A DNA stretch of 64,000 nt from Chiloscyllium plagiosum (Eukaryota), in assembly GCF_004010195.1 (NCBI RefSeq), contig NC_057755.1, positions 4,963,643-5,027,642 on the forward strand. The letters run 5' to 3'. The translations under genes and the position numbers were made by a program. This document shows positions 3,771 through 46,540 of this stretch, piece by piece (the stretch's first letter is position 1; the number at the start of each line of letters is the position of its first letter). Below the pieces are notes generated by a model. The model was given only the letters and a program-made list of their open reading frames with translations. It was not told the origin of the DNA and searched no databases.

Positions 3771-3779
3771 TGTAGCATC

Positions 3780-6485: not shown

Positions 6486-6540
6486 TGTGTTTAAAGTGAT
6501 ACAATGCCACACTCTGCTGGACTCCCCACGCAACTGCACA
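6486..6540 (-). promoter_or_regulatory. CTCF-like site (core plus upstream module)
   Basis: Minus strand TGCAG-N13-CCAGCAGAGTGTGGC-ATTGTATCACTTTAAACACA. Confidence 0.5.
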
Positions 6541-7252
6541 AGCAGCAGTTTCATTTTTGAAGAAATCATCAATGTCGATGAAGCTCTCACGTTGCACGTT
6601 TGCTTCTTTCTTCAAACAGTGCCTTCAGTAACACGAAGCAGCTTTGCCCGATCCGTTGCGATGCTGTCTCTGAGACATGAGGAGACAAGGGAAGAACATG
6701 CCCAGAGTTGAACTCACCCAGCACCCCCACCCCATCGGGGTTTGAATTCACTTTCCCTTTGAATTTGTGATAGCATATCGGAAAACATTATAAAAATGCA
6801 ATAAATTTCACTCTGTCTCTTCATGAAGAGTTTCAGTCAGAGATACCTGGATAGACTTGCAGCTGAATAACTCTACCTAATATCTCCAATGTCAGCACCA
6901 CTGCTAAAAGACAAATCGTTAACTCATTTCCACCTTGCAGTGAAAGTACAATTGATTTCTATTGAGTTAAAAATCACGCAAAACCAAATTATACTCCAAC
7001 ATTTGGAAAGTCCAAATTTCGGAGCGCTGAACTTTCATCAAGTGGTTGTGGAATATGAGGTAGTCCTTCTAAATAAGCATGTTGGACTCGAACCTTTTGT
7101 TGTGTGCTTTTTAACTTTGACACCACTGTCCAAGGCTGCCTCCTCCACATTACTTGTCACTTGAGTGTTTTCCACACTGACCGACATCAGTGCAATTGTA
7201 ATCCTCTCCACACGAACCTTGCGTGCAGTTCTTTGTGGGAGTGTGTATCTGT

Positions 7253-7293
<41 letters not shown>

Positions 7294-7386
7294 GATTTGC
7301 TGTCAGTTTGGATGTTGATGTGAGCTGCTGTCCTCCCTCTCTCACTCTGACCAAATCCCTGAGGGTTTTCGCCCTCAACCAACATA

Positions 7387-7441
7387 TGTGTAGTGGTGGA
7401 AGGAGGTCAGCAGAGGGTGACATTGAATCACTTTCAACACA
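7387..7441 (+). promoter_or_regulatory. CTCF-like site (core plus upstream module)
   Basis: TGTAG-N13-TCAGCAGAGGGTGAC-ATTGAATCACTTTCAACACA. Confidence 0.5.
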
Positions 7442-7717
7442 TGGAGTATTGATTGCATTATTTTCGTTCTGTCCCCTTCGACAGGGAGTTTCTGGTTAGA
7501 CTGCATTGGAGTAGCAGCCCACATTTTCTGATGAGCTATCCTATTTAATTTCATCAAAACACTCCTCAGGAATTAATTTGATGGAAACACGCAGAGGGTT
7601 ACAAGATAATAGGTGTTAGTCTGTAAGAGACATTATCGGTCTAACTGCAGCAGTTAAAAAAGGCAGCTTGCCCCACCTTCTCAAGGTGGGGGAAACTACG
7701 GATGAGGCAATAAATAC

Positions 7718-8972
7718 AGAGTCATAGAGATGTACAGAGTGGAAACAGAGCCTTCAGTCCAACCCGTCCAGATATCCCAACCCAATCTTGTCCCACCTGC
7801 CAGCACCTGGCCCATATCCCTCTAAACCCTTCCTATTCATATACCCATCCAAATGCCTCTTGAATGTTGCAATTTTACCAGCGTCCACCTCATTCCTTAC
7901 ATGTACCACCCCCTGCGTGAAAAAGTTGCCCCTTAGGTCTCTTTTATATCTTTCCCCTCTCAACCTAAGCCCTTTAGTTCTGGACTACCCCACCCCAGGG
8001 AAAAGACTTTGTTCTATTTATCCTATCCATGCCCCTCATAATTTTGTAAACCTCTAAAGGTCACCNNNNNNNNNNNNNNNNNNNNNNNNNNNNNNNNNNN
8101 NNNNNNNNNNNNNNNNNNNNNNNNNNNNNNNNNNNNNNNNNNNNNNNNNNNNNNNNNNNNNNNNNNNNNNNNNNNNNNNNNNNNNNNNNNNNNNNNNNNN
8201 NNNNNNNNNNNNNNNNNNNNNNNNNNNNNNNNNNNNNNNNNNNNNNNNNNNNNNNNNNNNNNNNNNNNNNNNNNNNNNNNNNNNNNNNNNNNNNNNNNNN
8301 NNNNNNNNNNNNNNNNNNNNNNNNNNNNNNNNNNNNNNNNNNNNNNNNNNNNNNNNNNNNNNNNNNNNNNNNNNNNNNNNNNNNNNNNNNNNNNNNNNNN
8401 NNNNNNNNNNNNNNNNNNNNNNNNNNNNNNNNNNNNNNNNNNNNNNNNNNNNNNNNNNNNNNNNNNNNNNNTCATTTATGTAAATGACAAAAAGTAGAGG
8501 ACCCAGCACCGATCCTCGTGGCACTCCACTGGTCACAGATCTCCAGTCTGAGAAACAATCCTCCACCACCACCCTCTGTCTTCTACTTTTGTGCCAGTTC
8601 TGTATCCAAATAGCTAGTTCTCCCTGTATTCCATGAGATCTAACCTTGCTTATCAGTCTCCCATGGGGAACCTTGTCGAACGCCTTACTGAAGTACATAT
8701 AGATCACATCTACTGCTCTGCCCTCATCAATCTTCTTTGCTACTTCTTCAAAAAACTCACTCAAGTTTCTGAGACATGATTTTCCACGCACAAAGCCCTG
8801 TTGACTGTCCCGAATCAGTCCTTGCCTTTCCAAATACATGTACATCCTATGCCTCAGGATTCCCTCCAACAACTTGCCCACCACCGAGGTCAGGCTCAAC
8901 AGTCTATAGTTTGCTGGCTTCTCTTTACCGCCCTTCTTAAAAAGTGGCACCACGTTTGCCAACCTCCAGTCT
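7718..8972 (-). mobile_element. CR1 LINE, 5'-truncated, spanning the assembly gap
   Basis: RT motifs ANVVPLFKKG, FSKAFDKVPHGRL, GVPRGSVLGPLLFVIYIN, then CR1 C-terminus FFTQGVVHVRN and 3' UTR. Confidence 0.92.
8066..8471. other. Assembly gap (406 N)
   Basis: Run of N inside a CR1 copy. Confidence 0.99.
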
Positions 8973-8974
8973 AA

Positions 8975-10010
8975 TTAACTATTCAATAAATACTTCTGGG
9001 TCATCCTTGCAGATTGGATAGTATGCCACGATTAATCACAGGCATTGGAGATTGAAGATCTGCCAGAACTCAATGGACAGGCGCATTTGGTCATGACGAG
9101 CAGTTCGGGATTGTTCACAGCCTTAAGTGGCCCCTCGTCCGACAGTGAAGAGGAATATTACGGAGAGACTGATCAAGGAAGGTGCAGGGCTTTTCCATCG
9201 ATGTGAGTTTAACATGGGCCCTCGTGCGGGAAGCAACAGGCTCTGAGAGAGCTGAATCATAAGGAGGAGGTAGCACTGGGGCCGTGGGGAGAACAGCGAG
9301 TCTAAGAGCATCTTCTTCGTCCGTATCACTGAATCAGGAAACATCGGCATGCCAGAGCAACTGGGAGGATCCTCCCTCATTTGAATCGGCTGGGCTCGCC
9401 CTGCCTGCCTGTTACTTGCAGCTGCTTATTTCAGGTCTTGATTTCTGAATAGTGCACACTCAAAACTTAATGTTTCCCAATCTTTCATTATACCATTCGT
9501 GCATTCGTCAATTCCCTGTTTATGAGCATTATCCCTCCAACTTATTAACTGTGAATGCTTGTGACGCCTAATCAATTCCTTTGTCCAATATGGTTTCAGT
9601 GATTTCCGATTGGAACCCGCATTTTGTGTCCAGGTCGCCTTTCTGGCAGTTTTGCAATTACAATGGTTCATGTGCCCCCTAGTGGCCAATACCTTTATCC
9701 AACTTGTTACTTAATATTGCGAACCGACGATGGAAATTACATGCCTGCGCCGGAAATACAGACCACACATATGACAAGCGTGAATTACGCTCGGTCGCTA
9801 TAGTCTGCAACACTTCATTATTCGTGATACCAAAAGCAACCAGAGTCCCAGACCCAATCTGAAAGGTAAGAGTGCCGCTGACGCTAAATCAGAAAAACAA
9901 AAAAAATCCTGTGTACACTTCCTGGCTATCCAGCAACTGGATCCCTAATCCACAGCGCTTCAATCACAGTCCACTGAAAAAACTTAGAATTTAGATTCGG
10001 AATTCGTCAC
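8975..10010 (-). mobile_element. gag: Endogenous retrovirus gag remnant (matrix, late domains, start of capsid)
   Basis: Minus-strand translation with frameshifts gives WPLGGT (about 9670-9688), PTAPVLPPPY (9259-9288), PVASRTRA and DDPEVFIE. Truncated on the left by the CR1. Same matrix motif as the ERV at 44 kb. Confidence 0.72.
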
Positions 10011-10944
10011 CTGTTAATGTCCTATGCAAGGTACCAGGGGTCTCAGCAAGAGAAAGCAAGACACCAAGGTTAAAGCCTTCATTGTGGCGCCCGTCTGTCT
10101 CTCACCTCTGGGCCATTGTTCGATGATTACTTCGGTGCCTCACAGAATTTACTTAGGGTATTTGGTTTTTGCTCAGCAGTGCCAAATTCAGGAGTGAATT
10201 TAACATAGCCACAAGACAGTCAGAGCTGAACTCTACAACACTCAACAAAAGTTCAACAAGCCTTGTTCTGACAAAACAATCGGTCCTTTTTAAAAGGCAA
10301 ACTGCATGCAGAGTGGCTGAATTTGGGAAAGAGAGAGAGGATCACTTTTTTGAGTTTTTCACAAGTTCGTGCTTAAGAGGAAATAGCAGGAATATTTATC
10401 CTTAAAACTTATCAATAGCTATCAATAAATGTCACGAGAGGTTTTTCTTCCATTAGACCGATACATTGAATTATGATCTGTGTTATTACTTGAGAGGTTT
10501 ATCACCTTGCCCTCCCAAAACCTGGTGCCACATACCTCATCTCATAATCTCGTCCTTATTGGGGCTGAAAGGATTGTGTGGAATGTCTTTATCTGGGCGT
10601 AGTCCACATTCCAGAATTTATGTGGACCCAGCCTGAACAAACTCTGCCGAGGTCTACCAAGGTTTCAGAATTTACGTGGACACAGCCTACGTCAAGTTCT
10701 GCTGAGGCTAGCAATGCTTTAACCTTTGTTACAGTCTTCACTTGTGTTGTGTCAGGCAGCTCTGGGGCCACACAAAGGACAGTCAAAGCATTTGTAACAA
10801 CCCGGTGTTGGCCAGTTTTTCCATCATGCAGCTATCTGTTTCACCCCATTCGACAAGTCCACTGAGCCAGCTGCATCATTCGTCATAAGAACCATGTGGC
10901 ACAGGAGGCTCAGTGGGTTTTTAATGCCCATTTGGTTTGCAGCA

Positions 10945-11885
10945 TCATAAAACCATCAGACATTGCAGCAGAAATTAGGCCATTCAGTCCATCTAGTCTG
11001 CTCTACCATTCAATCATGGCGGAGAACTTTCTCATCCCCATTCTCCCGCTTTCTCCCATAATCGCTGATCCCCTTGAGGCTGAAGACACTGTCTATCTCA
11101 GTTTTAAATATTCTAAAATACCTGACCTCCACAGCCTTCGGTGGAACTAATTCCATACATTCTCAACTCTCTGGCTGAAGAAGTTTCTCCTTATCTCTGT
11201 TCAAAATGGTCTTCCCTTTATTATAAGGCAGGGGCCCTTTGGTCCTAGTGTCTACTTCCAATGGAAACATCTTATCAACATCTCCCCTGTCCAGACCATA
11301 CAGAATTCTGTAAGTTTCAAACTGCATCGAGCATAAACCCAGAGTCCACAAACGTTCCTCATTTGTTCAGCTTTTTATTCCTCGGACCATTCTCGTGAAC
11401 CTTCTCTTAACACGTTCCAGAGCTAGCACATCCTTCCTGAGATATGGGCCCAAAAATGCGCACAATACTCCGAATGTCGTCTGACAAGAACCTTTTGAAG
11501 CCTGAGGCGTACATCCCTGTTTTTATAGCTCAGTCCTCTCAAAAGAAATGCTAGCATTGCATCTACCTCCCTAAATACTGACCCAACCAGCGAGTTTCAC
11601 TTGCGAGAATCCTGGGCTAGAACCCCCAAGTCTCTTTGCACATCAACTTCTGAAATTTCTCCCCATTTGAAAAATAGTCCACGCCTCTATTCCTCCTTCC
11701 AAAGGGAATGACTTCAAACCTTCCCGTGTTGCACTCCATCTGCCACTTCTTTGCCCACTCTACTAACCTGGCCAAATTCTTCTGCCGGCACCCCACCTCC
11801 ACAAATCTGCTTGTCCTTTTTCCTATCTTTATGCGTGGGCACACATAGCCAGAATTCCCTCAGTTCCTTCATTTAGATCATTATT
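10945..11885 (-). mobile_element. CR1 LINE 3' fragment
   Basis: RLVEWAKKWQMECNTGRFEVIPFG, ETYRILYGLDRGDVDKMFPL and a CR1-type 3' UTR. Confidence 0.85.
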
Positions 11886-11929
11886 GTGCAGAAAGCCAAG
11901 TATGGTTGCAACATTGATCATTGCGAACA

Positions 11930-13555
11930 AGCTGGCATCGAATTTGGAACCAGAAAAGACAATGGCAAAACACAAACAGCCCTGTCAAGCATGTTCTCCT
12001 TGCGAATATCTGGAGATTCATGCCGAAATCGGGAGAGCAGTCTCACAGACTAGTCAAGCAACAGCCTGACACTATCATCTGTATAGAATTATACATTACA
12101 GTTAACATGCTAGACGCTACCATTACCATTCCTGGATATCTCCTGTCTCAGTGGCAGTACACAGTCTGGAGTGATGGCGGCACAGTGGTATTTGGAGGCG
12201 AGAGAGTTGCCTTGGGAGTCCTTGACATCAGCACCGGACCCAATGAAATCTCATAGCTTCAGGTTAAACGTGAAAAAAACCCTCTTGTTGGTTCGCACAC
12301 ACTGTCCTCCTTCGGCTGATGAATCTGTACTCCTCCATGTTGAACAACACTTGCAGGAAGCACTGAACGTGACAAGGACACAAAATGGACTCTGAGTGGG
12401 GGATTTCAGTGTCCACCACCAGGGGTGGCCCGGCAGCAGCATTACTGATCGAGTTGGTCTTGTACTAAAGTATATAGCTGCTGGACTGGATCTATTGCAT
12501 GGGTGAAGGAAACAGCAAGAGTTGATAGTAAGAAGAAACACACTTGATCTCATCCTTACGAATCTGCCGGCTTCAGTATCGGTAAAAGTGACCACCACAC
12601 TGTCCTTGTGGAAACAAAGACCTGCCTTCACATTGAGAATAACCTCCATCATTTTGTATGGCACAATCATCATGTTAAATAAGACAGATTTTGAACCGAT
12701 GTAGCAGCTCAAGAATGGACATCCATGAGGCACTGTGGGCCATGAACAGCAGCAGAATTGTACTCCAGCTCAATCCATAATCTCATGGCCTGCCATATCC
12801 CCCACTCATCCATTACCATCAAACCAGTGGAACAAACCTTGTTCAATGAAGAGCGCAGGATGGCATGCCAGAAACAATATCAGGCATATCTAAAAATGAG
12901 GTATCAACCTGGTGAAGCTACCAAACAGGATTACTTGCATGCCAATTGGCATAAACAGGAAGTGATGGACAGAGCTAAGAGAGCCCATAACCGAAGGATC
13001 AGATCTATGCGCTACAGTCCTTCCACATCCAATCGTGAATGGTGGGGGCCAATTAAACAAGACACTGGAAGAGGAGGCTCCACAAATATCCACATCCTCA
13101 ATGTTGGAGGAGCCCAGCACATCAGTGAAAAAATAAGGCTGTCGCGTCAAGCAGCACCTGCTCAGAATAATCTGTACAATAACGCCCAGTTTGGGTTTCG
13201 CCAGGGCCACTACGCTCCTGAAATCATTACAGTCTTGATTCACACATGGACAAACGAGTTGATTTCCAGAGGGGAGGTGAGAGTGACAGCCGTCGACATC
13301 AAGGCAGCATTTCACAGAGTAAGACACCAAGGAACACTGGCAAAACTGGAGTCAATGGGTATTAGGAGGCAAACACTCCATTGGTTAGAGTCACACCTGG
13401 CACACAGGAAGATCGCATTGGTTGTGGAGGGTCAGTCATCTCAGCTCCAGGACATCTCAACAGGAATCCCTTAGGGTAGTGCCTGAGGCCCAACAATCTT
13501 CAGCTGCATCATCAATGACCTTCTCTCTGTCATGAGGCCAGAAGTCGCGATGTTC
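11930..13555 (+). mobile_element. LINE (CR1/L2 group) ORF2 fragment with APE endonuclease and RT, internally deleted
   Basis: GDFSVHHQGW, NTLDLILTN, QFGFRQGH, AVDIKAAFHRVRHQG, GIP*GSA*GPTIF; several stops. Confidence 0.85.
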
Positions 13556-13559
13556 TCGA

Positions 13560-13880
13560 GAGTCGAGAGTGGGGTGCTGGAAAAGCACACAAGGTCAGGC
13601 AGCATCAGTGGGGCGGGAGAATCGACGTTTCAGGCATAAGCCTTTCATCAGGAAAGAGGCTTGTTAGCCAAGGCGGCTGAGAGATAAATGGAAGGGATGG
13701 GGCTGGGAGAGAAGGTAGTCGGGAATTCAAAATGTAGATGAAGGTGGGGTTGAAGGTGATAGGTCGGAGAGGAGGAAGGAGACGATAGTTGGGGTGCGAG
13801 ATGGACAGGTAAGACAGGTCAAGAGGGTGGTGCCGAGTTGGAAGATTGTATTTGGAATAAGGTGAGGGAGCGGCCATAGC
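13560..13880 (-). mobile_element. Penelope-like element 3' terminus with hammerhead motif
   Basis: Pyrimidine-rich tract followed by ttcCTGATGAaaggcttatgcctGAAAcgtcgattc on the minus strand; homologous to the ends of the GIY-YIG elements at 26.2 kb and 49.0 kb. Confidence 0.75.
13621..13654 (-). ncRNA. Minimal hammerhead ribozyme motif (Penelope-associated)
   Basis: CUGAUGA-A-AGGC(UUAU)GCCU-GAAA-C-GUC: intact core, 4-bp helix II, palindromic ACGU in place of helix III. Confidence 0.6.
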
Positions 13881-14354
13881 TTCTGAGGGAGAATTGCTGG
13901 CTCTCTCATCCTCATCTATATATTAGAGAAAGAACTATTTAAATAACTAAGGGACAACCCACATAAAAGGCATTCCTGATGGAAAAATAGATGTGGGAAA
14001 GAACAGATCATTCCAGAAGACACGAACCTGGTTGTAATTTCGAGAGACTTTTTTGTTATATGGGTGGGGCTTGTTTTTTATTGGAAACTTGCTTTTGTCA
14101 GGAAAAGTTAGCAGTTCTGAGGAATTTATTTGGTTTGTGAATGAATTAGTTAATTTGTTCAATGTTCAAGTTCGATAATTGAGTTGTTACGTGTTGATTT
14201 AAAATGAGTCTCAGGGATTTAGTTTCTTTAGACAGTAGATTTTCTGAAACGCAGGTTATACCACTTTTCGCAATCCTTTTACAGATTATAGAGGGAGGTG
14301 TTCCTTTTTGGGTTTGTCGGGTTTAGTTCTCAAAGGGGGTCAACCTCCGTTTTA

Positions 14355-16935: not shown

Positions 16936-17099
16936 GACTGTGTCGATGTCCAACGGGGTCTCTGTTGCTTTAGCGGTTATTCTCTCCCACTCCTTCTCTG
17001 TCTGTCTCTCTCTCTATGTATCCCACGCTCTCTTTCTGTGCCTCTTGTGTGAAAGACGACATAATATTAATCTTATGTTGATGTGTGTCTCCATATGTG

Positions 17100-18370
17100 T
17101 CTCTGCGTCTGTTTTCTATGTGTGCGTGTGCGCGTGTGTCCATCTCTCCCTGCAATGTGAATGACTTTATCCTGATGGACGTGAATGAATTAATTTACGT
17201 GTGGTGAATCAAAAGCTCAGAGCCCAATCTGCCCCATCTTTTCTCTCCACATCTTGTGTTTAAAGAGATACAATGTCACCCTCTTCTGGATTAGCCACGC
17301 CACTACAGAAGCAGTCGATTATCTTTGGAGACAGTATCAAAATCTGTGAATTACTGACGTTGAACGATTGTTTCCTTCTTCATAGGAAATGTATGGTGAT
17401 GCAGCACAGTTGTGTTCAATCCCTTGCGATGTTGTCCTTAAGATATAAACAGTAGGAACTGCACATCCCCAAAACTGGCTTCGAAGGGGTGGACGCTTGG
17501 AAGTTGTTTCCATCAGGCAGGGAGACTATGACCCGTGGGCACAACTGTAAAATTAGAGGGAATCAATTTAAAACGGAAGTGAGGAGATATTTTTTCAGCC
17601 AGAGTGGTAGGCCTGTGGAATTCATTGCCACGGAGCGCTGTGGAGGCCGGGACGTTGGGTGTCTTCAAGGCAGAAATTGAGAAATTCATAATCTCGCTAG
17701 GAATTAAGGTTTACAAGGAGAGTGCAGGTAAGTGTAATTGTAACGCCGATCAGCTATGACTAAATGGCGGTGTGGACACGATGGGCCAAATGGCCTTGCT
17801 TCCACTCCTATGTCTTATAGTCTTATGGTCTAAAACTGGTCTTAATTTCTCCGACTTTGAATATCACTTTGAACATGTGACAGAGCATCAGAAAACAATG
17901 GCAGCTGCAAAGTTCACCCTGTCTCCTCAAAAAACGTTTCCCTGGGAGGTGCCTGGATGCAGTTGGAATGGAAATGATCGAATAAATATCAATAATATCA
18001 GCAATATTGCGCAAAGACAAATTGTTTTCTCATTGTAGAGAAAATGCAACATTTCTCAACATGTGCATATTCTACACTGAGGGGCCTCATTACAATTGGA
18101 ATGTTCTCCACACCAGCATGTGAGTGTGTGTGTGTGTGAGAGTGTGTGTGTGTGTATGTTGATAGTGCCGTCAGTTTGGTTCGTACTGTGAGCTGCTGTC
18201 CTCCCTCTCTCCCTGTCTGAACGAATCCAAGGGGTTTCCCCCTCCATCACAGTGTGGTGGCTTGTGGTGGCCAGCAGAGGCGAGCATTTTATCACTTTCA
18301 ACATAAAGGGAGCTAAATTTCACGATGTTGACTCTCATACCCATGGCAGAACATTTCTCATTGGAGAGCA
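17100..18370 (+). repeat. Duplicated non-coding cassette, copy 2, with inverted CTCF-like motif pair and (GT)n
   Basis: Colinear with 6300-7560 apart from a CR1 insertion. Motifs at 17255-17309 (-): TGTAG-N13-CCAGAAGAGGGTGAC, and 18251-18305 (+): TGTGG-N13-CCAGCAGAGGCGAGC. Confidence 0.85.
17479..17831 (+). mobile_element. 5'-truncated CR1 insertion with 8-bp target-site duplication
   Basis: aaaactgg at 17471-17478 and 17832-17839; CR1 C-terminus RGHNCKIRGNQFKTEVRRYFFSQ; (tcttatgg)n-type tail. Confidence 0.88.
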
Positions 18371-18759
18371 TTGGCGAGGCAACCCACCCAGATGCTGATA
18401 AAACAGGGAGATCAACAATTTGCTATCATTTATTTGATGGGTGAGTTCTCATAACATCATGTGATCACCTTCCACAATTTCCCAACATGAAACTATTCAT
18501 CGTTGACTATTTGTCACATTAGCATGTGGTATGTCGAATTGCTACTCTGGAGTGAGACCATGCATGTTATCGTGGGGCACGTTCTCATATACTATTATAC
18601 TTAATTTAATCAGAAACCTCCTAAGTCTTAGATTTTGATGGAAATTTATGGAAGGTTCTAATCTGATTGTAACAATCACGTGGGAAATTCTATTCCCCTG
18701 GACAATTCCTTTGGATTGTGCTAAGGTGGGTTCCCAGATCAACTCTCTCTCTGGGCTGA

Positions 18760-19300
18760 GATAAGTAACCTCTGTCAGGAGTGTGATGGAATACTCCCCA
18801 CTTGTCTTGGATCGGAGCAGCTCCAGCAGCACTTAAGAAGCTTGATACCATTCAAGACAAAACAGCCCTTAGTTGATTGGAACCACATCCACAAATATCC
18901 CCTCATTCCACCACAGACACACAGGAGCAGCAGTGCATACTGTCTACATGATGCAGTGCAGATATTCGGCAAATATCCTGAGACAGCAACTACTGAACCC
19001 ACGACTACTTCCATCCAAAAAGGCAAGGGCTGCACCTACACGTGAACACTACACACCTGCAAATTACTCTCCGAGCCACTCACCATCTAGACTTGGAAAA
19101 ATAATACCATAACTCACTGTTGCTGGGTCAAGATCCAAGAATTTCTACTCTAACAAAATTTTGGTTGATGTGTATCCCGTGGACTTCAGTGTTTCAAAAA
19201 GGCAGCTCACTACCAACTTCGCAAGGGAGGGCTTTTAGGGGTGGGTAATAAATGTTGACCCAGCCAGCGACGCCCACATTCCACGAGTGAATTTTTAAAA
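18760..19300 (+). mobile_element. LINE 3' end (probably the same family as 11930-13555)
   Basis: VRSVMEYSPLVLDRSSSSST-type C-terminal motif and the tail aataaatgttgacccagccagcgacgcccacattcc. Confidence 0.65.
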
Positions 19301-19357
19301 AAAGTCATTCCATGGTCTGGATAAAAATAACCCACCTGTGGGTATCACTGAGGAGTT

Positions 19358-20259
19358 TTATTTATTCATAGCACAAGGAATTTGTGCAAACAGGTCGTTT
19401 ACTGCATTACTGATTTTTGCCCTGAACCTAGACAATGTCGCTGCATAAATAAATGTGTTTGTGCAACAACTTAGCCTCTGCAGCATGAAACCAATAATAC
19501 CGAAGTGATATAGAAAGGGTGGGTAATCATCAGGATTGATTCCTTGAATGACATAAAGTAAGAAATCTGCAACATTGATTAACCGCAGGAGGATGAAACT
19601 CCCAGATATGGTGAAGAGCAAAATCACAGACTTCCTTCTGCTCTCCATCTCTGGGTCTCTGCGATCCTCTCCATTGCTGTCAACCTTCAGTCTCTTCCGG
19701 GCTCGACTCGTCACCACAATGTGTCTGACTGTCACAGCATTGAGCAAGAGAATTAAAACGAATGGCAGTAAAGGGGTTAAAACCACATCAAGCGAATCTA
19801 ATGCCACCCACCAAGTCTCAGTATAGTAACTTGACTTTGTTTCACTGTAGAATGGCATATTGTTGATTATCACCCAAGGTTTATAGGCAAAATAGAAGGG
19901 GATGTTTTTCAAACAGAACAGGGAGCAGGTTGTTGCGAGAACCACAGTCGCCGTTTTCTCGTTGCAATATTTTGCTTTCAGCTTCTGACAACAGATGGTC
20001 ACAAATCTGTCAAAGGAGAAAGTGACAGTGAACCAGACAGAACAGTCTCTTGCTGCACGAAACAGGGCCCCAATAACACTACACACTGGAGTGAGGGACA
20101 GGAAAGACCGTGGGTAATAATAAAAGCGAAAACTCGTCAGTATAATGTCAGTGATAATGACCATCAGATCGGAAGCGGCCATAACCACCAGGTAGCGAGT
20201 AGTGCAAGGGGATACACCACACTTTCCCTGGGAAAGGAGAGCAATCGCCAGCATATTAA
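19358..20259 (-). CDS. GPR139/GPR142-like orphan class A GPCR, exon 2 (intact ORF)
   Basis: Acceptor ttcttccacag ending at 20260; 902 nt open: VNMLAIALLSQGKCGVSPCTTRYLVVMAASD...TPVCS...FSFDRFVTICC...RRKSVILLFTISGSF...LSCCTNTFIY...MNK*. With exon 1 gives 969 nt, 322 aa, seven hydrophobic segments. Confidence 0.92.
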
Positions 20260-21463
20260 CTGTGGAAGAAAAATTGGAAAAGACCTAATGAAATTCTGAT
20301 CAGTTATTCTCCATGCCTGTTCCAAAAATCAAGAATACCAATTTACCAAAACAATTTGGCACACCCTGTAAGTGCAAGTGATTGGATTTGAGTGAGGTTG
20401 AAATTAATGTTTCCACACCATCCTCACATTGTCCTCCAAGACAATCACTCTAGAGATTGCGGAATTTAGCCAGAGACTGACCTCATGTCCCACCTAGGAG
20501 AGCAGAAGGAGACCTGAGTTTAAGGTGACTGAGTGAATTTAACAGATTACTTCAGCTCCCAGCTCCAATCCGGCAGGCACAGAAACCTATTAGCAATCTT
20601 GCTCTCAACACTGTCATAAAACTGGCGATTATACTGTCAATAAACCAAATTTACCCCTTCTCCATGTTTCAAGTGATCTACTCTTCACATTGGACCAAAT
20701 CCTGATTGGAGCCGCAACAGGAAAAGGAAACATGTCCAAAGCAAAATCGGACGTTGCTGTAAAATCTCAGCAGTTCTGCACACATCTGTGAAGAAGAATC
20801 ACCGTTAGCGTTTCGGTCCCATTGACCCTTCCTCAGAACCAGATCCGATATGTTAACTCTGATTTTTCTTCACAGATGCTGCCAGACCTGACGAAATTTT
20901 CCAGCAACATCTGCTTCCATTTCTTTCGGATTTTATTCAGGAAACGGGTAATCAGAACGTGCATAAGATTTCAAACAAGACTACGCCATGTATCTTACTC
21001 AAGTTAGATTCGATTAGATTCCATACAGTGTGGAAACAGATGCTTCGACCCAACTAGTCAACACCGACCCTCCGAAGAATAACCCACCTCGACACATTTC
21101 CCCTCTGTGCCGCCCAAGTGCAGCATAACAGTACCTCCAGGGTTCGCTCAGTGACAACGTGTGAGTGTTAGCACTGCTGTGATATTTACAGTGATAATCT
21201 ACACATCTGTACATGACAAATGTCTCGATGTACAGGGATCAGGAGGGAAGTCTGCCAAGAGTTGTTCTCTCTGAACAGTGAAGTTGGGACTGTTTATCAG
21301 TGGATATTCTGCCGACAGTGCTGTTCAGTGAATTGCTATCACAGTTCTGGTTTCTGGATAAGGCTGACCAGTCAGTGAGCTGGGAAAAAAAATGTCCAAA
21401 TGTTAAAGGCAGAGATCAGCTCAGCAGCAGATTAAAACTAGTTTAATTATAATTTTACCATAC

Positions 21464-21530
21464 CAGGGATGCCAATAAAAGCAAGGATGGTGTCGAATAT
21501 CTTCTCTACGTGTTCAATTAGTCGAAGCAT
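21464..21530 (-). CDS. GPR139-like GPCR, exon 1 (N-terminus and start of TM1)
   Basis: agaaaaATG, MLRLIEHVEKIFDTILAFIGIP plus G, donor GTATGG; 67 nt, phase 1, in frame with exon 2. Confidence 0.88.
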
Positions 21531-26229: not shown

Positions 26230-27120
26230 CTAGAGTGGTGCTGGAAAACCACAGCAGTTCAGACAGCATCCAAGGAGCAGGAAAATCAATGTTTCGGGCA
26301 AAAGACCTTCAGCAGAAATTTAGGCAAAGTGCCTGAAGCGTGGAGAGATAAATGAGAAGAGGGTCGGGGAGGAGGGTGGGGGAAGGTATCAAAGAGTACA
26401 ATGGGTGGATGGGGGTGGGGATGAAGGTGATAGGTCAGAGAGCAGGGTGGATTGGATAGATGGAAAGGAAGATAGGTAGGTAGGACAAGACATGGGGACA
26501 GTGCTGAGCTCGTAGTTTGGAGCTGGGGTGGGGGGAGGGGAAATGAGGAAACTGGTGAAGTCCACATTGATGCCCTGAGACATTCTTCCTCCAAGCGTCG
26601 GGTGCTGAGGAAGTGATGGTGAAGGAGGCCAATGACTTCCATGTCCTCCGCTGAGTGGGAGGGGGAGTTGAAATGTTGGGCCACAGGGCGGTGTGGTTGA
26701 TTGGTGCGGGTGTCCCAGAGATGTTCCCTAAAGCGCTCTGTAGAGGATACCACATCGGGAGCAATGGATACAATAAATGATATTGGTGGATGTGCAGGTA
26801 AAACTTTGATGGATGTGGAAGGTTCCTTGAGGGCCTTGGATGGAGGTGAGGGAGGAGGTGGGCGCAGGTTTTACAATTCCTGTGGTGGCAGGGGAAGGTG
26901 CCAGGACGGGAGGGTGAGTTGTTGGGGGGCGTGGCCCTGATCAGGTAGTCACGGAGGGAACGGTCTTTGCGGAAGACGGAAAGGGGTGGGGAGGCAAATA
27001 TATCCCTGGTGGTGGGGTACGTTTGGAGGTGCCAGAAATGTCGGCAGATGATTTAGTTTATTCGACGGTTGATAGGGTGGAAGGTGAGCACCAGGGGCGG
27101 TTCTGTCCTTGTTATGATTG
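26230..27120 (-). mobile_element. Penelope-like element: GIY-YIG endonuclease region and 3' terminus
   Basis: ERFREHLWDTRTNQPHRPVAQHFNSPSHSAEDMEVIGLL; degenerate hammerhead near 26285-26318. Confidence 0.85.
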
Positions 27121-29580: not shown

Positions 29581-29758
29581 GGTACCGTCTGTAATATGAA
29601 GACATTACTCTGCTGTGCCGCCTGTGCAGAAACTATGCATTGGGGTTGACTCCTCCAGCACCCATCACGAGATAAACAAGATCAACCTTAAAATAAAATA
29701 AAGAAACTCGAAATATCGAGCTTGTTTCACTGTCCACAGTTGCTGCCAGAGCTGCTGA

Positions 29759-30011
29759 GATTCCCCAGTAATTCTAGTGAATGCCCGACCACTATTTTGC
29801 AATGTTACTTTTGTTTACAATGTGTTATCTGTAGGTTTTGTTACTTGAAGCCACCGGCGTTGCCTATGACTGAATTTTGCTAATTTATTTTGAATTACAT
29901 CTTCTTTGTGCATTTTGATTTCCAAATCTGCAATTTCTGTTATTTATTTCCTTCGCCAAACTGATCTGCACAGTTGCCTTCATTGGAAGGGGCATTAAGC
30001 GTAAGGATACA
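29759..30011 (+). repeat. Near-identical direct repeat, copy A (partner 31009-31271)
   Basis: gattccccagtaattcta...gtaaggataca is present twice with few differences; copy A lacks 12 nt. Confidence 0.95.
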
Positions 30012-30560: not shown

Positions 30561-31008
30561 TCATTTATTTTTGAGGCGTTTTTTGAACATACTGTGTATC
30601 AGCACCGCAAGCAGGGCTATACCCAGTCAGTTTTGTTTTAGAATTTAAATACTGACCTTGCTGTAAATGTGATGTTTAGTAAACGCAATAGAATAGTTGG
30701 AATGTATTCAACAATCTAATCGGTCATCTTAATATTGAAACAAAACAAAGAAATTCGATGCTGAAGATCTGTAAAAAAAAGGAATTGGAGAAACCCAGCA
30801 GGACTGGCAGCTTCTGCAGGGAGAGAAAAACAGAGACAATGTTCAAATGATCCTTCTTTGGTTCTGCTATCTTTCCAGAAATGTTCAGTTTGCCCAGTAG
30901 TTTCTGTCTTTGTTCCTTTCATCAAAGCAATTACACGTGTATTAGTACAAAGGACGCAAGAGAGTCATAAATAATGAAAATTCGCTTAAATATTGCATCA
31001 GTAATGCA

Positions 31009-31271
31009 GATTCCCCAGTAATTCTATTTTATTACATAGTGAATGCCCGACCACTATTTTGCAATGCTACTTTTGTTTACAATGTGTTATCTGTAGGTTT
31101 GTTACTTGAAGCCACCGGCGTTGCCTATGACTGAATGAGCTAATTTATTTTGAATTACATCTTCTTTGTGCATTTTGATTTCCAAATCTGCAATTTCTGT
31201 TATTTATTTCCTTCGCCAAACTGATCTGCATAGTTGCCTTCATTGGAAGGGGCATTAAGCGTAAGGATACA
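31009..31271 (+). repeat. Near-identical direct repeat, copy B, inserted into a hairpin
   Basis: Flanked by catcagta (30996-31003 and 31270-31277) and by inverted arms atattgcatca / tgatgcaatat. Confidence 0.93.
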
Positions 31272-36050: not shown

Positions 36051-36657
36051 AGAGTCATCTGTAATGAGACTTGTTGCGTTTCTCCAGAAATTTCTGTTTC
36101 TTGTTTGTTGAGATGAGTTACAACCGAGTCAAAGTCAAGAAATAAAATGGAAGGGAGAACCCATAGTTTGAGATACTTAGCATCATTGTGAACGCGTTTG
36201 GTGAAGTAAAATTGATATGCCGGCTTTCCATTTCAAATTATGTTCTGCGGGACATTCTCATATACACTAGAAACAATCTCAAGTGCACACTCTGTAAGTA
36301 CACCTATACTGGAGTTTTGCTGTATGAAAGTTTTAAAAGTTACCATTATTGTGCTAATGTTCAATTTTTTTTTCTGAGGTGATAAAGTCAATGGCGCAAA
36401 CAACGTCATCACTATAAATTAAGACAGACTATAGTAAAATAGCACATGACAGGATAAAATCTGGAAAATGTTTGGTACTGAACCGCCTGCAGTGTATTCT
36501 TCTGCATTTCCATGTCACATTAATGCAGAATGTTAAAATAGGCCGTTGATGTCTTGAATTTATGTGCAATCTTGTTATATTTGCAAGAATGTAAAAGAAA
36601 GAATTGCAGATGTGACACTTAAGAAAATAAACGCTCCAGGAAATAGAAAGTATTGGA

Positions 36658-40200: not shown

Positions 40201-43200
40201 TCGGATGTAATGAACTGTACATCAGTTCTGAGACCCGAGTCAACAAGGTTTGTATCATTCAGATACTATTAATCGTAACACTTGACAGCTCAGTTGGTGA
40301 TATTGCAAAATTCTAACACCATGGGTTGAATTTCTGTATCGGCTAAGTTGCACATAAAGGGCTCTCCTTCTTAACCTCTCAACTGGCCTGATGCATGTTG
40401 TACCTGAGATTAAACTCTACCAGTCTCCTCTAATACGATAGCAATCCTATGGTCTAACAGCACCATGGTGACTTCATGGTTGAACTGAAGAGATGTAAAT
40501 TACTTGGACTTGTATAGTTTACAAATGGCGAATCAAAAAGCTTGCAGAAGGAATTAGTCAGTGTTCTTATTCGAGTGTATTTAAAATTAGATTATATTTC
40601 ATGTACGTTTTTTGAGGGGATAGCTATTGTCCCCCAGAATTTGGTTGGAAATGCTAGAATGGATTCTTTGTGTCCAGCTGAGTTTTTAAAAAATTTAACG
40701 TCATTAGACTTGACCACAAACAGTTTGGCTTAAACTCCACCATATAACAGGTGGAGTTTCAAATTTAGATTAGATTAGATCAGATCATGATCTGGGCAGA
40801 CAGGATACATAACAGCTTGCTATTTACATATTGGTAGCCTGTATGCTCCTTTTAACAACGTGATCGCTCAGTTAACTTAAACATCAATTTAAATATTTAT
40901 GGATGGAACTGCACCTTCTGCACTCCGGATTTTGCAGTACGCACAAACTTTGTGAGTGACTAGTTTTTAACATCAGAAGAGAGTCCAATTACTGATCACA
41001 GGCGGAATGTTTGGCTACCTTAGCAGCAGTTGGAGTGGTGAGGTGAACATGAAAGGGTCCTTCCCAACGAGGTTGGAGGCCACTGAGTGTCCATTGTAAT
41101 AAAGTATAAACAATTTCCTCCTTGCACAGGCAGCAGAAAAGAATGGGCACAAACTTGTCCAGTAGACATTCTGGTTTGAGTATCGAGAGAGTACCATATT
41201 TGAGAGCATAATTTGTGCTCTGCTGCAGGGCCATCCCCCGTGATTACTGTACCTTACTCAGGCCTGGCATACCCATCCTTATACTGCGTCAAACCGGGTT
41301 TTACTGGGGACCCAATGGGACCATAAGCTCTAAAATCGTGGATCATATTAAAAGAGCAATAAAGAGTCAGTGTATATTGGTATATTTTCCTTTTGCTACG
41401 AAGAAAGCATGTTGATTTCCAACATCAGGTCCAAGGTAACATTAGAGACACATAAATCTCTAGTGGCCACATTTCAACAGTTAAAGCAAGGGGCAGGCAT
41501 TTGTCCCTGGGGGTTTTGCTGTTTTGTGGCCAGTCTCAAAGGTGAAATGCTGGGGCATGCATGTTCCCATTTTCAGGATCTCCTTAGGAAAAGTTTGCCT
41601 ATCCGTGGTGATCGGGTGGGGTTCATGAGGTAGATTCAGCCACCAGTGGGTACCTGGTTCCAATCAACCACATCAGAGCTGGCATATGGCCTTGGGATCG
41701 CGAGGAAGCTGGATATATTTTGTTTTACCTGCAACGCGCATCGTGATTCAGTCCGGTTCTCGCCATCCCAATAGCAAACCACCGCTCACTTCATTTGTGA
41801 CTGGAAATTCCTCGTCTGGTTCGTACTGTTGGTACAGATCATGTTTCCAAATGGAAAACATTGCAAAAGCATAAGGTTAAACAAAGGTAATTGGTCTTCC
41901 AGATTATTGTTGAATTGTACGTCACTTCCATCAGGCAGATAGGCACATCTTTCAGTATTGTAACACAAGTCATCTGTATTCAGGTTACGCCCAGAATTTC
42001 ACTGCATTTACATTCGTATCGCCATTGGACATATTTAGCCTATTAGGCTGGTTTGGTCTTGAGGTCTGGACATGCTTCATTAACATAACTCTAATTTCTG
42101 GGATGTGACCCGGTTTAGGATGGGACAGGTCACTCATCCCCATGATATCAGCTGTGAAGACTGGATGCTTCATTTTTAAAAGGAGGAGAGGTTTGAAACA
42201 AGTGGGTTGTTTAAACTAAGGCTGGAGTCAATCAGGAGAAATTAAGGGCTCAGCGGGTATACAAATTCCTCATCCTCAAAATAGACTCGGGAATTTTACG
42301 GTATTGATTCTTTAACCTTGTTTATATATTCCGCGATCTTACTAGCTTTACACAATTTCTCATGGCCTGTTTATATTTTTTCATATACGTATTCAGTCAC
42401 CTCCCCAGCTTTTGGAAGTTCCATCTGATATATGACCATTCCCCAATTACATGCTGAATTTCTTCAACTCACCAGTAAGTTAACTTTCCATCCTTTAATT
42501 AATAACGAATCCATGCAACCATGATTCAAATTAAACATGAGGCAATGAGGCAGGTCACTGACAATGTGTAAAGGAATGAAACCAAGCGATTCTGCCAATT
42601 AATTTTGATTTTGTGATTTGGGCTAATGCAAATTATTATTAAAATTTATAAATAAAATAATAATTATCTGTAATTAAGGGTGGAAACTCAACAAATGACT
42701 AAGACACTTTAAAAGTCATCAATAAAAATTGGAAATTCATTTTTTAGTATTTAATATTTAATATGTAAAATGTATTCAGTTTCTAACTTTGAAATCCATT
42801 ATAATTATCAGGTTTCAGTGCCTTAATTTAAGTCCAAGATTAATTTCCTTAAGTGGTCCTGACCAGTCATTATTCATTTACAATGCTATGTGTCGTGAAA
42901 TGACTGGAATTGCCTTAAAAGATCTTGTCTACTCAGATGATAAAAAAAGGTTTCTAATGCACGAGAAATGGCCGAGTCCAAAGACACAGATATTAACCAC
43001 AAGATATTAATTTTGTCACATGATTTATCAGAACGTGATGTTGAATTAAAACTTCAGTCGTCGTTGAGGGAGGGGTTCCCTCCATAAAGCTGCGGCTGGC
43101 ACATCACAATTATCAATGAAACACAGAAATCTTAAAATTAAGTGGAAACAAACGAGTCTGAAACAAGAAAATGTTGTCTTCACCGTATTAAACTGATTTG

Positions 43201-43830
43201 AAATTGAATAAAGTTGGCTTTGATGAATGGATAAAAGGTCAGTTAGAAACTGACAGTGGGGCAGTCATGAAGAACACGGGTTAATATTTCATTCCATATT
43301 CATTGAAGGAACCTTAACCTTAATATGCTGAATTTCCAAATCAAATCCAAAACAGTCCCGGATCTCAAGCTGCAGGCAACAAAACTCAACATTCAATCAC
43401 AGCAATCAAATGTGCATTCAAACCGAATCTGGAATGGTTAAACATTTGGCAAGCAGCAGGCAGTCTCACAGACACCGCCACCACCCCCCGCTCCCCCTCC
43501 CCCCCCCACACACATTCCAAATGTCAAATAAATCTTGGTTGTAGCAGATAAGTGCTTAATCAAGTGTTCGAGAATTGTACCACTGGCCAGCTTTCTTATG
43601 TATTTTTAACACAACAAGAACAGCAGCCACCCGCGTAAACAAAGAGCAAACATCGAAACGCACAGAAAAGACGCAGCCAATTTACAGATACAACAGGTAC
43701 AATGAACAACAAGACTAATGAGTAGCCAACCATTGAAAGTTTGACTCGGCAAAAGGGAATATTTTGTGAAAAACTGGTGATTTGTCCTTCCCCTCTGACT
43801 TGTGGTGGAGGATGAGTGTTATCAGGAGGT

Positions 43831-44999
43831 TTACCCAAGTGTCATAGAAGTTCTGAGGTTATTCTCATGAAAACTTCCTTGGTCCGCCTGTGTGGCCCCT
43901 CTAGGGCAATTAGAGGTCTCATGGAGGGGACTGCCGCAGGTAAGGCAGTTTCGAGTCGGGCAGTCACGGGCCCAGTGATATAGACTGTTGCAATTATAAC
44001 AGTTAGGGGGCAGACACGTAGCGGGTGTCCATCTGCCATACCCACGACCGTGGCCTCGAATGGGTGCAGGGCCACTACTATGACACACGGGTAGTTGTTG
44101 AGGTGCCTCCTCTTGGACTACAAATTCTGATTTTACGCGGATCGGTGGTCTGGTTTCACTCTGCTGTTTCCACAAGGCCTTAAGAGAAAGACGGACTTGA
44201 TTAGGAGTCGCTTCAACCCAGTCCAAGTTGTTTGTTTTGACTGCTGTGACGACAGAGGGTGACAGGAAGTTTAATAGCCTAGAATTATACTGAGCATTAA
44301 TAGCATTTAAATTCTAAGCCCAGTCGCTGGAACAAGACTCATTATATTATCCAAAACTTTCAAGGAAGCCTTCAGCAGACTCCTTGTTTGTGGAGCGAAG
44401 TTCAAGGATGCGAGTAAAGTCAATAGGCTTTGCTAGTATGGCAGATGCAGCAGCAGGGATATCATCTTGTTGTTGCTGAGCTTGGGCTACAGCATTAGAG
44501 AGGGCAGTAAAATTATTGTGACCAATACATTCAGTAAAACGGGCATATTCAGAGCGGGTCAGGACTTGTTGAAGAAGGGCTCGAAAATCTTGTGCATTGC
44601 CATCATAAACTGTAATTGTGGTGTTTAAAAGATCAACGAACTCCTGAGGAGTCTTTTGAGGAACTCAATAGATTTCATGGCACCATCAGCAGTTAATTAA
44701 ATTTCCAATTCAGTGGCACTATTCTACCATGGGCACTAAACTGATTCTTTTTGAGTTTCATCATCATATTGTCTCCACATTTAATTAGTTCCTTTGCTTT
44801 GGAATTCATGTTCATTTTACAAATTATTTTCTGGGCAGATCTGATCAATTGAATACTTTTTGAGCCACCTAGTGGCCACTGCTCGTCACCCAATGCTTTA
44901 ATCAAGGTGCCAGAAAGTTTCAAAAAGAGTTTGGATATCACACATATTTTTACTAACGGTGAAGAACGGATCTTCCATCTTATCTATGTGATTAGTCAT
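43831..44999 (-). pseudogene. gag: ERV gag, decayed: matrix, capsid and two CCHC zinc knuckles
   Basis: WPLGGS matrix motif; PQKTPQEFVDLLNTTITVYDG...; CYNCNSLYHWARDC and CLTCGSPLHETSNC; frameshifts and stops. Confidence 0.85.
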
Positions 45000-45496
45000 C
45001 TTTAAGCAAACGTCCTTTTATAGTTCTGACTGAAAAGCACTTATTATCCAACAGCCTATCAACACACAACAATTTTTCGACTTCCACAAACCCTTCTCGA
45101 CTTTGTTTTCAGATCCGTTTCTCAAGTCTGACCATGGATGTCACTCTCCCCATTTTGGCCGTGTATATAATCTCTCTCTCTTTTGTGTATATAATCTCTC
45201 CCTGACACTCTTTTGTGGAGTTCTCATCTCGGCAAAGGTCCTGGACTTTTTCTCTCTCTCTCTTTCTCTCTCCGTCTCTACCCTCCCTTAGTAGGACCGA
45301 TCCTTTTTGGGCTGTAATAGGGCAATAGACAACGATGGGTCAGTTCAAACACGACTTGAATCAGAGGAAAACAAACGGATATAAAATACTCACGTCCGGC
45401 TGGCCCAATTCCTTAACACTCACGAGTGAAGGACTCAAGGCTCTTACACCTCTGTCCATGATCCGTCCTTGCTGAACCACAATTCGCGCTACCATA

Positions 45497-46067
45497 TGAA
45501 TATGTGGATCCCAGTCGGAACCTCTCGGTTTCGAGATCAGTTAAAAGAATCTACAGGAATGCTGTCTGTACAAATCAAGGTTGCCAGTTTTATTAAAAAG
45601 GCAGCCAGGCGCAGCTTTATCCAGCATCACAGATGATAAAGCTTTTGTGTTCCATGGTGAAATTTTGTGCAATTACATTCGAAAATTAAACATCATTTAT
45701 ACATTTTTAAAAGAGACAACACAGCCTTAATTACAAGAAAAGACCAATAAAATGTAATCAGACGACATGATTGACAGCAGGCTAATGCAATGGTATTTCT
45801 CGGGAAATGGCTCTTGTCAACATAAATCATCATCTCATGCTTACAGTTCAACGTTAGTACAAATGGTCATTTTATGAAGACTGTTGTCTGCTTTATCTTG
45901 CAGTTCAGCTGACTCAGCAAAGTAGAAATGCAGGTTCATACTGTCAAATTATAACTTGAAACCATTTTGTTATGTAATTTTAATTTGAAAAGCTATTTTG
46001 TGTTTAATAAGAACCTGCATATATTTGTTGCTTTTAACAACAGTCTAAGTCATATTTCAAATCCTCA
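45497..46067 (-). mobile_element. ERV 5' LTR
   Basis: Minus strand TG(aggatttg)...(att)CA, TATAAA at 45696-45701, AATAAA at 45589-45594, followed after 2 nt by TGGTAGCGCGAATTGTGG. Confidence 0.72.
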
Positions 46068-46255
46068 TCCCCTCATGAACGATATCACTGAAAAGTGCAT
46101 GGATGCAATTGCAGTGGAAACATTCTATTCATTGTGTACAATGTCAGGAATACTGCTTAAAAACAAATTACTCCCATATTGCAGAGAGGGCACAACATTT
46201 CTTCAATGAGTGTATCCCACACGCAGGGATTTCAGTACAGTTGTAGTCTTCTCCA

Positions 46256-46345
<90 letters not shown>

Positions 46346-46540
46346 TGTGTGTGTGTGTATACCCTCTGATGGTGCTGTCAATTGACTGGTGTTGTAAGTT
46401 GTTGCCCTCCCGCTCTCCGCGCTCTCCCCCTGAGGGTTTTCACACTTCACCACCGCATGTCCAGTAGTATCGGGGGACCATCAGATGGTGAGATTGTATC
46501 ATTTTTAACACAGCGAAGTGTGGTTAAATTATTCAGACGC
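46068..46540 (+). repeat. Duplicated non-coding cassette, copy 3 (right half only) with long (GT)n
   Basis: Similar to about 6820-7500; (GT)n 46259-46358; motif 46458-46512 TCCAG-N13-CCATCAGATGGTGAG-ATTGTATCATTTTTAACACA. Confidence 0.8.

Follow-up and report, generated by a model that had tools for sequence, protein, structure and literature searches.

Inverted CTCF-like motifs beside GPR139-like genes of Chiloscyllium plagiosum: a possible fossil Kolobok-like element co-duplicated with one carpet-shark receptor subfamily

Background

In one stretch of the genome of the shark Chiloscyllium plagiosum, a 55-bp motif resembling a CTCF site recurs in back-to-back pairs between GPR139-like genes, which raises the question of whether these pairs partition a receptor cluster into loops or represent the ends of an old mobile element. 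An earlier note on this window (i.e., the whole stretch analyzed, 64,000 nucleotides of contig NC_057755.1, positions 4,963,643 to 5,027,642) had favored a per-gene insulator system and had named the terminal inverted repeats (TIRs) of a Kolobok-type MITE as the alternative.

Results

All five motif copies described previously were found, on the same strands and in ungapped alignment over their full 55 bp, far above chance. They represent the left (6486-6540, minus strand) and right (7387-7441, plus strand) arms of a first cassette (C1), the left (17255-17309, minus strand) and right (18251-18305, plus strand) arms of a second (C2), and the lone right arm (46458-46512, plus strand) of a third (C3). 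With a leave-one-out matrix the copies scored 39.7-70.3 bits and the best background at most 0.8 bits, and both left arms were retrieved by a matrix derived solely from the three right arms; the profile scan that the earlier note had proposed, run on the window, gave no sixth copy (nhmmer; next E = 1.9). The constant 13-nt spacing (N13) was confirmed in all five. The consensus TG(C/T)AG is exact in three copies, the remaining two reading TGTGG and TCCAG; the upstream module of the C2 left arm is TGCAG in three of three genomic runs (17305 A>G). The C1 left arm is nearest to the majority sequence, differing at 4 of 55 bases. Rfam gave no matches and ARAGORN no genes; exact-pattern scans of metagenome contigs, which are uninformative for shark sequence, found no loci. 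A literature search, with most subscription papers outside its coverage, found four short pieces of the motif in no paper and nothing on the cassette.

The motifs thus form two inverted pairs and one right arm without a partner, so that the back-to-back arrangement claimed before holds for two cassettes, and they lie in three copies of a segment of approx. 1.3-1.5 kb, all in the same orientation. C1 (6316-7607, plus strand) is complete, with both arms and the common flanks, and carries a stretch of approx. 180 bp (about 6967-7147) missing from C2 and C3. C2 (17095-18664, plus strand) is also complete, with a right flank that borders on the 3' region of the intact gene G2, and its interior contains a high-copy repeat fragment (17475-17855), which served as positive control for a dispersed repeat. 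C3 (46063-46570, plus strand) is truncated on the left, stopping at about 46063, and its right flank is interrupted by a foldback of approx. 490 bp, beyond which a resumption of the flank was looked for and not found. The cassette is larger than the 1.2 kb first proposed, as 6316-7607 aligns with 17095-18664. Nor does its divergence greatly exceed that of the motif: outside the motif, 955 of 1373 aligned positions agree (70%; the aligner is permissive and gives 56% on unrelated DNA), while same-arm motif pairs are 82, 71, 71 and 60% identical. Homology extends beyond the TTAA on both sides, in every available comparison of the flanks (left 1 of 1; right 3 of 3); the cassettes are therefore local duplicates, copied together with their flanks as had been supposed, and not independent insertions into unrelated sequence.

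By read depth at a likeness threshold of 80%, the cassette interior was close to single-copy in each of three species, older copies below this threshold being invisible, and its depth was lower than that of the dispersed repeat inside C2 by three to four orders of magnitude; the cassette is thus not a young high-copy MITE. Short extra matches accumulated on the motif bins in five of six run-by-arm cases, amounting to about 7-14 single-copy equivalents as a rough lower bound. GPR139-like exons, on the other hand, had depths of 420-13,000 (approx. 20 for single-copy sequence), which puts the number of family members roughly in the hundreds. Differences from species C were counted at 22 bases in 281 and 38 in 634 for cassette contigs, and at 18 in 325 for a neighboring repeat fragment (P = 0.33 and P = 0.88; Fisher's exact test), i.e., the substitution rate of the interior is neutral-like. 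In a single-cell RNA run, of which about 2% was read and which at this depth is too shallow for expression, no reads fell on unique bins of the cassette.

Left and right arms are as similar to each other (72% identity, 6 pairs) as right arms are among themselves (67%, 3 pairs), and only 2 of 55 columns distinguish the two sides. At the time the cassettes diverged, left and right arms were therefore almost identical, as terminal repeats that start out the same would be. The inverted match is limited to approx. 55-63 bp. In C1, the putative fossil element would occupy 6495-7432 (938 bp), bounded by TTAA (6491-6494) and TTCA (7433-7436) and with AG...CT ends. TTAA is intact in two of the five arms, both left ones (the other at 17260-17263); the right arms have TTCA in C1 and C2 and TTTA (46504-46507) in C3, changes compatible with one old mutation. 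Kolobok elements are defined by a TTAA target and 5'-RR...YY-3' termini. Here, TTAA is followed by AG at both left arms and CT is present at two of three right arms; read inward from the TTAA position, four arms have AG and one has AA. Over its first 8 inner bases, the majority sequence is the same as the right TIR of Xenopus XKol A1, a match with a chance probability of about 0.003 (11 distinct 8-mers, AG fixed), which is exact in one of the five copies and ends after 8 nt. Beyond the TTAA, the left/right similarity runs for another 5-8 bp, including five bases (ACACA) common to both arms with 1 mismatch in 25; for an element bounded by TTAA, the insertion site would have to have been a 14-bp palindrome, the odds of which are about 1 in 1000 if there was no target preference. 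No transposase was seen. The 8-mer shared with XKol occurs nine times in the KolobokP supplement, and the two occurrences inspected there are internal. Recombination-signal and Helitron-type readings were rejected, as inspection by eye found no heptamer/nonamer and no terminal hairpin. Overall, the Kolobok-type alternative explains the origin of the pair better than the insulator proposal does, once it is modified to a single fossil insertion that host duplication later copied, instead of independent insertions.

The likeness to CTCF sites exceeds chance: with at most 3 mismatches in the core and at most 1 in the upstream module, four of the five copies pass, against three other sites in approx. 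128,000 positions. The cores have 2-3 mismatches per copy to the 14-letter consensus of the earlier note, and four of the five copies have 0-1 mismatch to TGCAG at N13. This spacing can be written as 4 + 6-bp linker + 3, within the 2-7 bp linker range of CTCF (PMC12885311). As had been cautioned, the conserved C at core position 12, read by Glu362 of ZF4 (PMC10484683), is missing from every copy (T in four, G in one), and each copy has a private core lesion besides (core changes at positions 10 and 12 in the C1 left arm, 1, 12 and 14 in the C1 right arm, 11 and 12 in the C2 right arm, and 4, 12 and 14 in C3). TGG precedes the core in one of five copies, and two better CTCF cores occur elsewhere in the window, at 9685 and 44875; homology between these two is not claimed (score 49, null maximum 50; downstream only, P about 0.07).

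The core was found to be no more conserved than the cassette. Changes in the whole motif (44 of 275) and in the core (10 of 70) both fit drift at 16% per lineage (P = 0.48 and P = 0.39, respectively), and the right arms of all three cassettes agree at 7 of 14 core columns, as compared to 107 of 231 (46%) outside the motif, a comparison of low power. Rates within the motif are uneven, with 9 of 105 cells changed in the 3' 21 bp and 15 of 45 in the 9-bp free spacer (joint P about 0.003-0.005 under uniform drift), which may reflect selection or a slower change of AT-rich DNA; the five copies also have no net gaps (P about 0.05). Conservation of an interior 21-bp block (17 of 21) is higher than that of the 3' block (15 of 21). 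DMRT, SOX and FOX sites were rejected as conserved functions, the DM-, SOX- and FOX-type cores being intact in one, three and two of the five copies, respectively.

Three GPR139-like sequences lie in the window. G2 (19358-21530, minus strand) is an intact two-exon gene, with exon 1 at about 21530-21462 and exon 2 extending to 19358, and belongs to a fully supported, star-like carpet-shark clade with paralogs from whale, zebra and bamboo sharks; four of the whale-shark paralogs and four of the zebra-shark paralogs lie on shared contigs. G1 (831-1755, plus strand; in-frame stop and frameshift) and G3 (52073-53005, minus strand; in-frame stop) are pseudogene exons from a clade distant to G2. G1 and G3 are the products of a recent inverted duplication (identity at 89 of 95 four-fold sites and 88% in the flank), and their common block ends at 4668/49126 and does not include the cassette. 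An intact gene adjoins one of the three cassettes (C2, with G2), and the element does not occur once per gene at a fixed position. The arm on the side of G1 is a left one, that on the side of G3 a right one. The window scan placed no motif near the G2 promoter; a promoter role was rejected, as G2 has its own TATA-like box upstream and the motif is located 3'. These results do not bear out a working per-gene insulator system.

Discussion

We consider the chances about even that the cassettes descend from a single fossil element, Kolobok-like and with ends resembling CTCF sites, that was duplicated together with one GPR139-like subfamily of carpet sharks. The inverted pair would then represent the TIRs of an old, non-autonomous cut-and-paste DNA transposon, probably about 0.65-0.75 kb in size before later insertions, with an outward-facing CTCF-like site at its ends. 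A single insertion close to the 3' end of a G2-type gene would soon have been followed by copying, as part of the tandem duplications through which the G2-type subfamily grew in carpet sharks, the copies taking along at least 170 bp of flank on the left and 60-360 bp on the right. Drift would mostly have followed, with CTCF binding weakened or lost and two of the three window copies now lacking a G2-type partner. This history requires duplication soon after insertion; the star-like G2 clade may reflect a duplication burst, which would explain a near-simultaneous split of the cassettes.

A constrained regulatory module, in which each arm is a composite site with the CTCF upstream module, the core and a second factor on the 3' block, is less likely but deserves consideration. 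Such a module would be a divergent boundary selected at the 3' end of G2-type genes, whether or not derived from a transposon, with the orphan cassettes now decaying. Its architecture beyond chance, the N13 spacing compatible with the linker range (PMC12885311), the slow 3' block beside a fast spacer, the gapless copies, the TGCAG restored by all three runs and the extra matches on motif bins are in its favor, the C2 right arm may hold a compensating 1-bp deletion and insertion, and skate boundaries are marked by divergent CTCF sites (PMC10115646). These points have to be set against a core that evolves like the rest of the cassette, has lost C12 and gained a private change in every copy, and mostly lacks the preceding TGG, as well as against the decayed DM-, SOX- and FOX-type cores, the better conserved interior block and the better CTCF cores elsewhere in the window. 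We regard as rather improbable the more elaborate scenario in which a transposon whose two ends held CTCF upstream-plus-core sites inserted 3' of the gene that founded the subfamily and was retained as a divergent boundary; it would then have multiplied along with every paralog, so that each G2-type gene sits in its own loop and the outer 21-bp block binds a second factor. A cluster-wide system of one cassette and one loop per receptor gene, as in clustered protocadherins, seems highly improbable: the match of three cassettes to three genes, each with an arm pointing to a gene 3' end, is offset by the G1/G3 duplication that stops short of the cassette, the opposite arms that these two genes face, the G2 promoter without a motif, the missing left arm of C3 and a motif excess far below the size of the receptor family. 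Moreover, C2 and C3 are about 68% alike, while G2 and G3 share 23 of 61 four-fold sites.

Alternatively, the mobile unit may have been the whole 1.3-1.5-kb segment, or an element of another TIR superfamily ending outside the TTAA, that moved by local hops. Flanks and orientation common to all three copies whatever the gene strand, two copies with no G2-type remnant nearby and a left/right likeness running past the TTAA would agree with this; we nevertheless judge it improbable, as neither an outer terminal repeat nor a target duplication is visible, the segment merges at either end into microsatellites or other repeats, and the interior is near single-copy. Least probable, and for these three copies largely refuted, is the reading as independent insertions of an ordinary dispersed, TTAA-bounded MITE family: the star-like divergence and the Kolobok-like ends would suit it, but it conflicts with the homologous flanks and with the low depth relative to the repeat in C2.

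If neutral, the cassette would be of little use except as a marker to date and map gene gain and loss in one GPR139-like subfamily. If the arms bind CTCF and accompany every G2-type paralog in other carpet sharks, they would constitute a transposon-supplied, two-sided boundary that spread together with a little-studied family of receptors, and could help to explain expression choice among GPR139-like genes.

Xenopus T2-MITE/XKol (PMC6004289) and the Kolobok MITE in the sablefish gsdf promoter (PMC8327909) have TTAA followed by AG on the left and CT on the right, as here, and the first 8 inner bases are shared with XKol A1. The short non-coding interior of the cassette is likewise typical of non-autonomous Kolobok elements. 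The shark inverted match inside the TTAA is longer (about 46 bp, as compared to TIRs of 12 bp in sablefish and 11-18 bp in KolobokP), five palindromic bases are added outside the TTAA, the right-hand TTAA is never intact, and the copies have common flanks and no high copy number. CTCF sites with an upstream (ZF9-11) module, such as the IL3 insulator (PMC12885311), share the TGCAG-like module, a compatible spacing and a CCAGCAG-type core, and the back-to-back orientation of the arms is that of divergent CTCF pairs at skate TAD boundaries (PMC10115646). In contrast to known CTCF sites, the shark cores are mismatched, lack C12 and show no excess conservation, and the candidate arms have an additional, unexplained 21-bp 3' block. 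Clustered protocadherin promoters carry CTCF sites, and both systems have a CTCF-like element that recurs through a tandem gene family; the shark element, however, lies 3' of the gene and not in a promoter, forms inverted pairs and is not present once per gene. Rodent B2 SINEs are transposon-borne CTCF sites and resemble the shark element in that a mobile element brings a CTCF-like motif to new places; the shark motif, by comparison, seems to have spread through host tandem duplication of a single insertion.

Results

Five copies of a ~55-bp CTCF-like motif (hereafter arms) were found where an earlier note had placed them, i.e., at 6486-6540 (-), 7387-7441 (+), 17255-17309 (-), 18251-18305 (+) and 46458-46512 (+). 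All five aligned over 55 bp without gaps, with leave-one-out scores of 39.7-70.3 bits as compared to ≤0.8 bits at all other sites in the window, and the window contains no sixth copy. The arms form an inverted pair in each of two complete cassettes, C1 and C2, and a single right arm in a left-truncated cassette, C3. The proposed upstream consensus, TG(C/T)AG, held exactly for 3/5 copies and failed for the remaining two. Just past an imperfect ~490-bp foldback (46552-47039), which interrupts the right flank of C3, a single 13-nt match to the 3' block of the motif (the 21 bp beyond the core) was seen at 47067-47079 (+) (nhmmer E = 2.2); it may be due to chance.

C1 (6316-7607) is homologous to C2 (17095-18664), and the homology passes the left arm by about 170 bp and the right arm by at least 60-80 bp, with a weak additional block reaching 7607/18664; C3 covers 46063-46570. 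The three cassettes share the same orientation irrespective of the strand of the nearest gene. As homology continues beyond the TTAA in C1, C2 and C3, sequence comparison indicates that they are local duplicates of one locus, in agreement with the earlier proposal of a duplicated unit, rather than independent MITE insertions bounded by TTAA. C2 also contains a high-copy repeat (17475-17855). At the place where C1 should have its G2-type partner, the assembly has a gap of ~400 N (8061-8471) embedded in a LINE fragment.

Other repeats in the window include two gag-like ORFs at 43831-44664 (-), one with a CCHC zinc knuckle, which are probably a decayed LTR-element fragment; a direct duplication of ~260 bp (29758-30011 and 31008-31271; 93% identical); and related fragments at 26232-26911, 48346-49075 and 13562-13869, which appear Penelope-like by eye, and of which two ORFs tested showed no Pfam match.

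Three GPR139-like genes are present in the window. The intact member, G2 (minus strand, 21530-19358), comprises two exons and has a TATA-like box; its exon encodes a 7tm_1 receptor, and the 120 matches listed (of 1718) were shark proteins, nearly all labeled GPR139-like, the best among them being a Chiloscyllium punctatum protein (90% identical). G1 and G3 are pseudogenes that differ in their lesions (a stop plus a frameshift in G1, one in-frame stop in G3), and for neither was a first exon found in the window. They represent a recent inverted duplication (768-4668 and 49126-53067; also 1-373 and 57465-57836), with 89/95 four-fold sites identical and 88% identity in the 3' flank, as compared to only 23/61 four-fold sites identical between G2 and G3; the common block stops at 4668/49126, before reaching either cassette. 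In a midpoint-rooted tree that combined the three window genes with 25 of the 120 listed matches (28 rows), G2 grouped in a star-like clade with whale-, zebra- and bamboo-shark paralogs (support 100/100), while G1/G3 were placed on a long branch outside this clade. Poly(A)-signal hexamers occur downstream of G2 at 18434 and 18610 (-), in or beside the right flank of C2; transcripts of G2 may thus have their 3' end shortly ahead of the right arm of C2.

Copy number was assessed by aligning contigs of three species to 16950-19949 at 80% likeness, where summed contig depth does not equal copy number. Ten interior or flank bins free of motif and repeat edges showed depths of 8-110, near single-copy (about 10-30), as compared to 10^4 to 4x10^5 for the repeat inserted in C2 and 420-13,000 for the receptor exon. 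Depth of the motif bins was elevated in 5/6 cases (171, 94, 99; 302, 175, 14), an excess of at least ~7-14 single-copy equivalents, of which copies in the window may account for 3-4; in one of the runs, X3, point depths located the left-arm excess at 17231-17304. A single short deep contig can mimic such an excess (depth 251 at 18437, 2 contigs), and the neighboring bin 18150-18249, which includes a microsatellite edge, was equally deep. The excess fits a dozen conserved arms or a larger, older family alike. A young abundant MITE is ruled out by the depth signal at 80% likeness.

A combined core and upstream filter was passed by 4/5 arms and by only three other sites on both strands of the window, which shows that the ancestral arm resembled a CTCF site. 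The upstream-core spacing falls within the linker range given in PMC12885311, and the upstream module of the C2 left arm was TGCAG in 3/3 genomic runs. As the earlier note had observed, none of the five arms (0/5) has C at core position 12, and each carries an additional private core change (positions 10, 1, 5, 11 and 4). In the excerpts of PMC10484683 and PMC10325916, position 12 is contacted by ZF4 Glu362, TpG on the motif strand is absent from the five accommodated states named, and a downstream CTCF contact is placed immediately past the core; on these excerpts, the 21-bp block is thus unaccounted for by CTCF, as previously claimed. Outside the cassettes, a perfect core (9672-9685, -) and a one-mismatch core (44862-44875, -), each preceded by TGG, are better candidates for true CTCF binding than all five arms; similarity between these two cores was within the null. 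Of other factor motifs compared with the arms, a SOX-type site is intact in 3/5, a FOX-type site in 2/5 and a DM-type core in 1/5.

Conservation statistics rest on five motif copies and have low power. Non-motif cassette segments were identical at 955/1373 positions (70%), a value somewhat inflated because the aligner yields 56% identity even on unrelated DNA; same-arm motif pairs showed 82, 71, 71 and 60%. Drift from the majority affected 44/275 motif cells and 10/70 core cells, both fitting ~16% per lineage (total motif drift: P = 0.15 at 19%, P = 0.014 at 22%). Among the three right arms, invariant columns numbered 30/55 in the motif, 7/14 in the core and 107/231 outside, and an interior 21-bp block (17/21) exceeded the motif 3' block (15/21). 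The core thus showed no excess of conservation over the cassette. Pointing the other way, rates within the motif were uneven (outer 21 bp, 9/105 changes; free spacer, 15/45; joint P = 0.003-0.005, assuming 16-19%), and no copy (0/5) had a net gap (P about 0.05); slow change is thus seen in the AT-rich outer block rather than in the CTCF core. Compared to species C, the cassette showed 60/915 differences and was no slower than a neighboring repeat fragment (18/325), whose orthology is assumed from a full-length match at single-copy depth.

Left-right arm identity was 72% as compared to 67% for right-right; no more than 2 columns distinguish left from right arms, and the inverted similarity does not extend beyond about 55-63 bp; terminal repeats that were once identical would give this pattern. 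Kolobok elements are defined by TTAA duplications and RR..YY ends (PMC9587614, PMC8327909). AG ends occur in 4/5 arms, and at its inner end the arm majority sequence begins with the same 8 bases as the right TIR of Xenopus XKol A1 (PMC6004289; chance about 0.003; exact in only 1/5 copies). The suggested TTAA-type ends are intact in 2/5 copies; the right TTAA is intact in none, and 5 further palindromic bases lie outside TTAA (about 1 in 1000 without target preference). For these two reasons we did not assign the element to Kolobok. No description of the cassette was found in the openly available literature; repeat annotations for sharks in subscription papers or preprint supplements may already list it under a name.

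Discussion

The most likely origin, to which we give an even chance, is a single insertion of a non-autonomous, Kolobok-like element, its ends resembling CTCF sites, on the 3' side of a G2-type gene. The element would have multiplied during a burst of tandem duplication of the G2-type subfamily, and its copies would have drifted afterwards, leaving C1 and C3 as orphans. A composite site under selection, now or formerly, is an unlikely reading of the arm: the uneven rates and slow outer block would agree with it, while core drift at the general rate would not. Divergent CTCF sites mark boundaries in cartilaginous fish (PMC10115646), so the arms may have a function. The full model of one insulator cassette per receptor gene, as put forward in the earlier note, failed the one-per-gene test within the window, and we regard it as very improbable. 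Clustered protocadherins, another tandem gene family with a repeated CTCF-like element, have it in their promoters; the element described here is found 3' of the gene, occurs in inverted pairs and does not accompany every gene. Rodent B2 SINEs also bring CTCF-like motifs to new sites, but the present element seems to have spread through tandem duplication, by the host, of one insertion.
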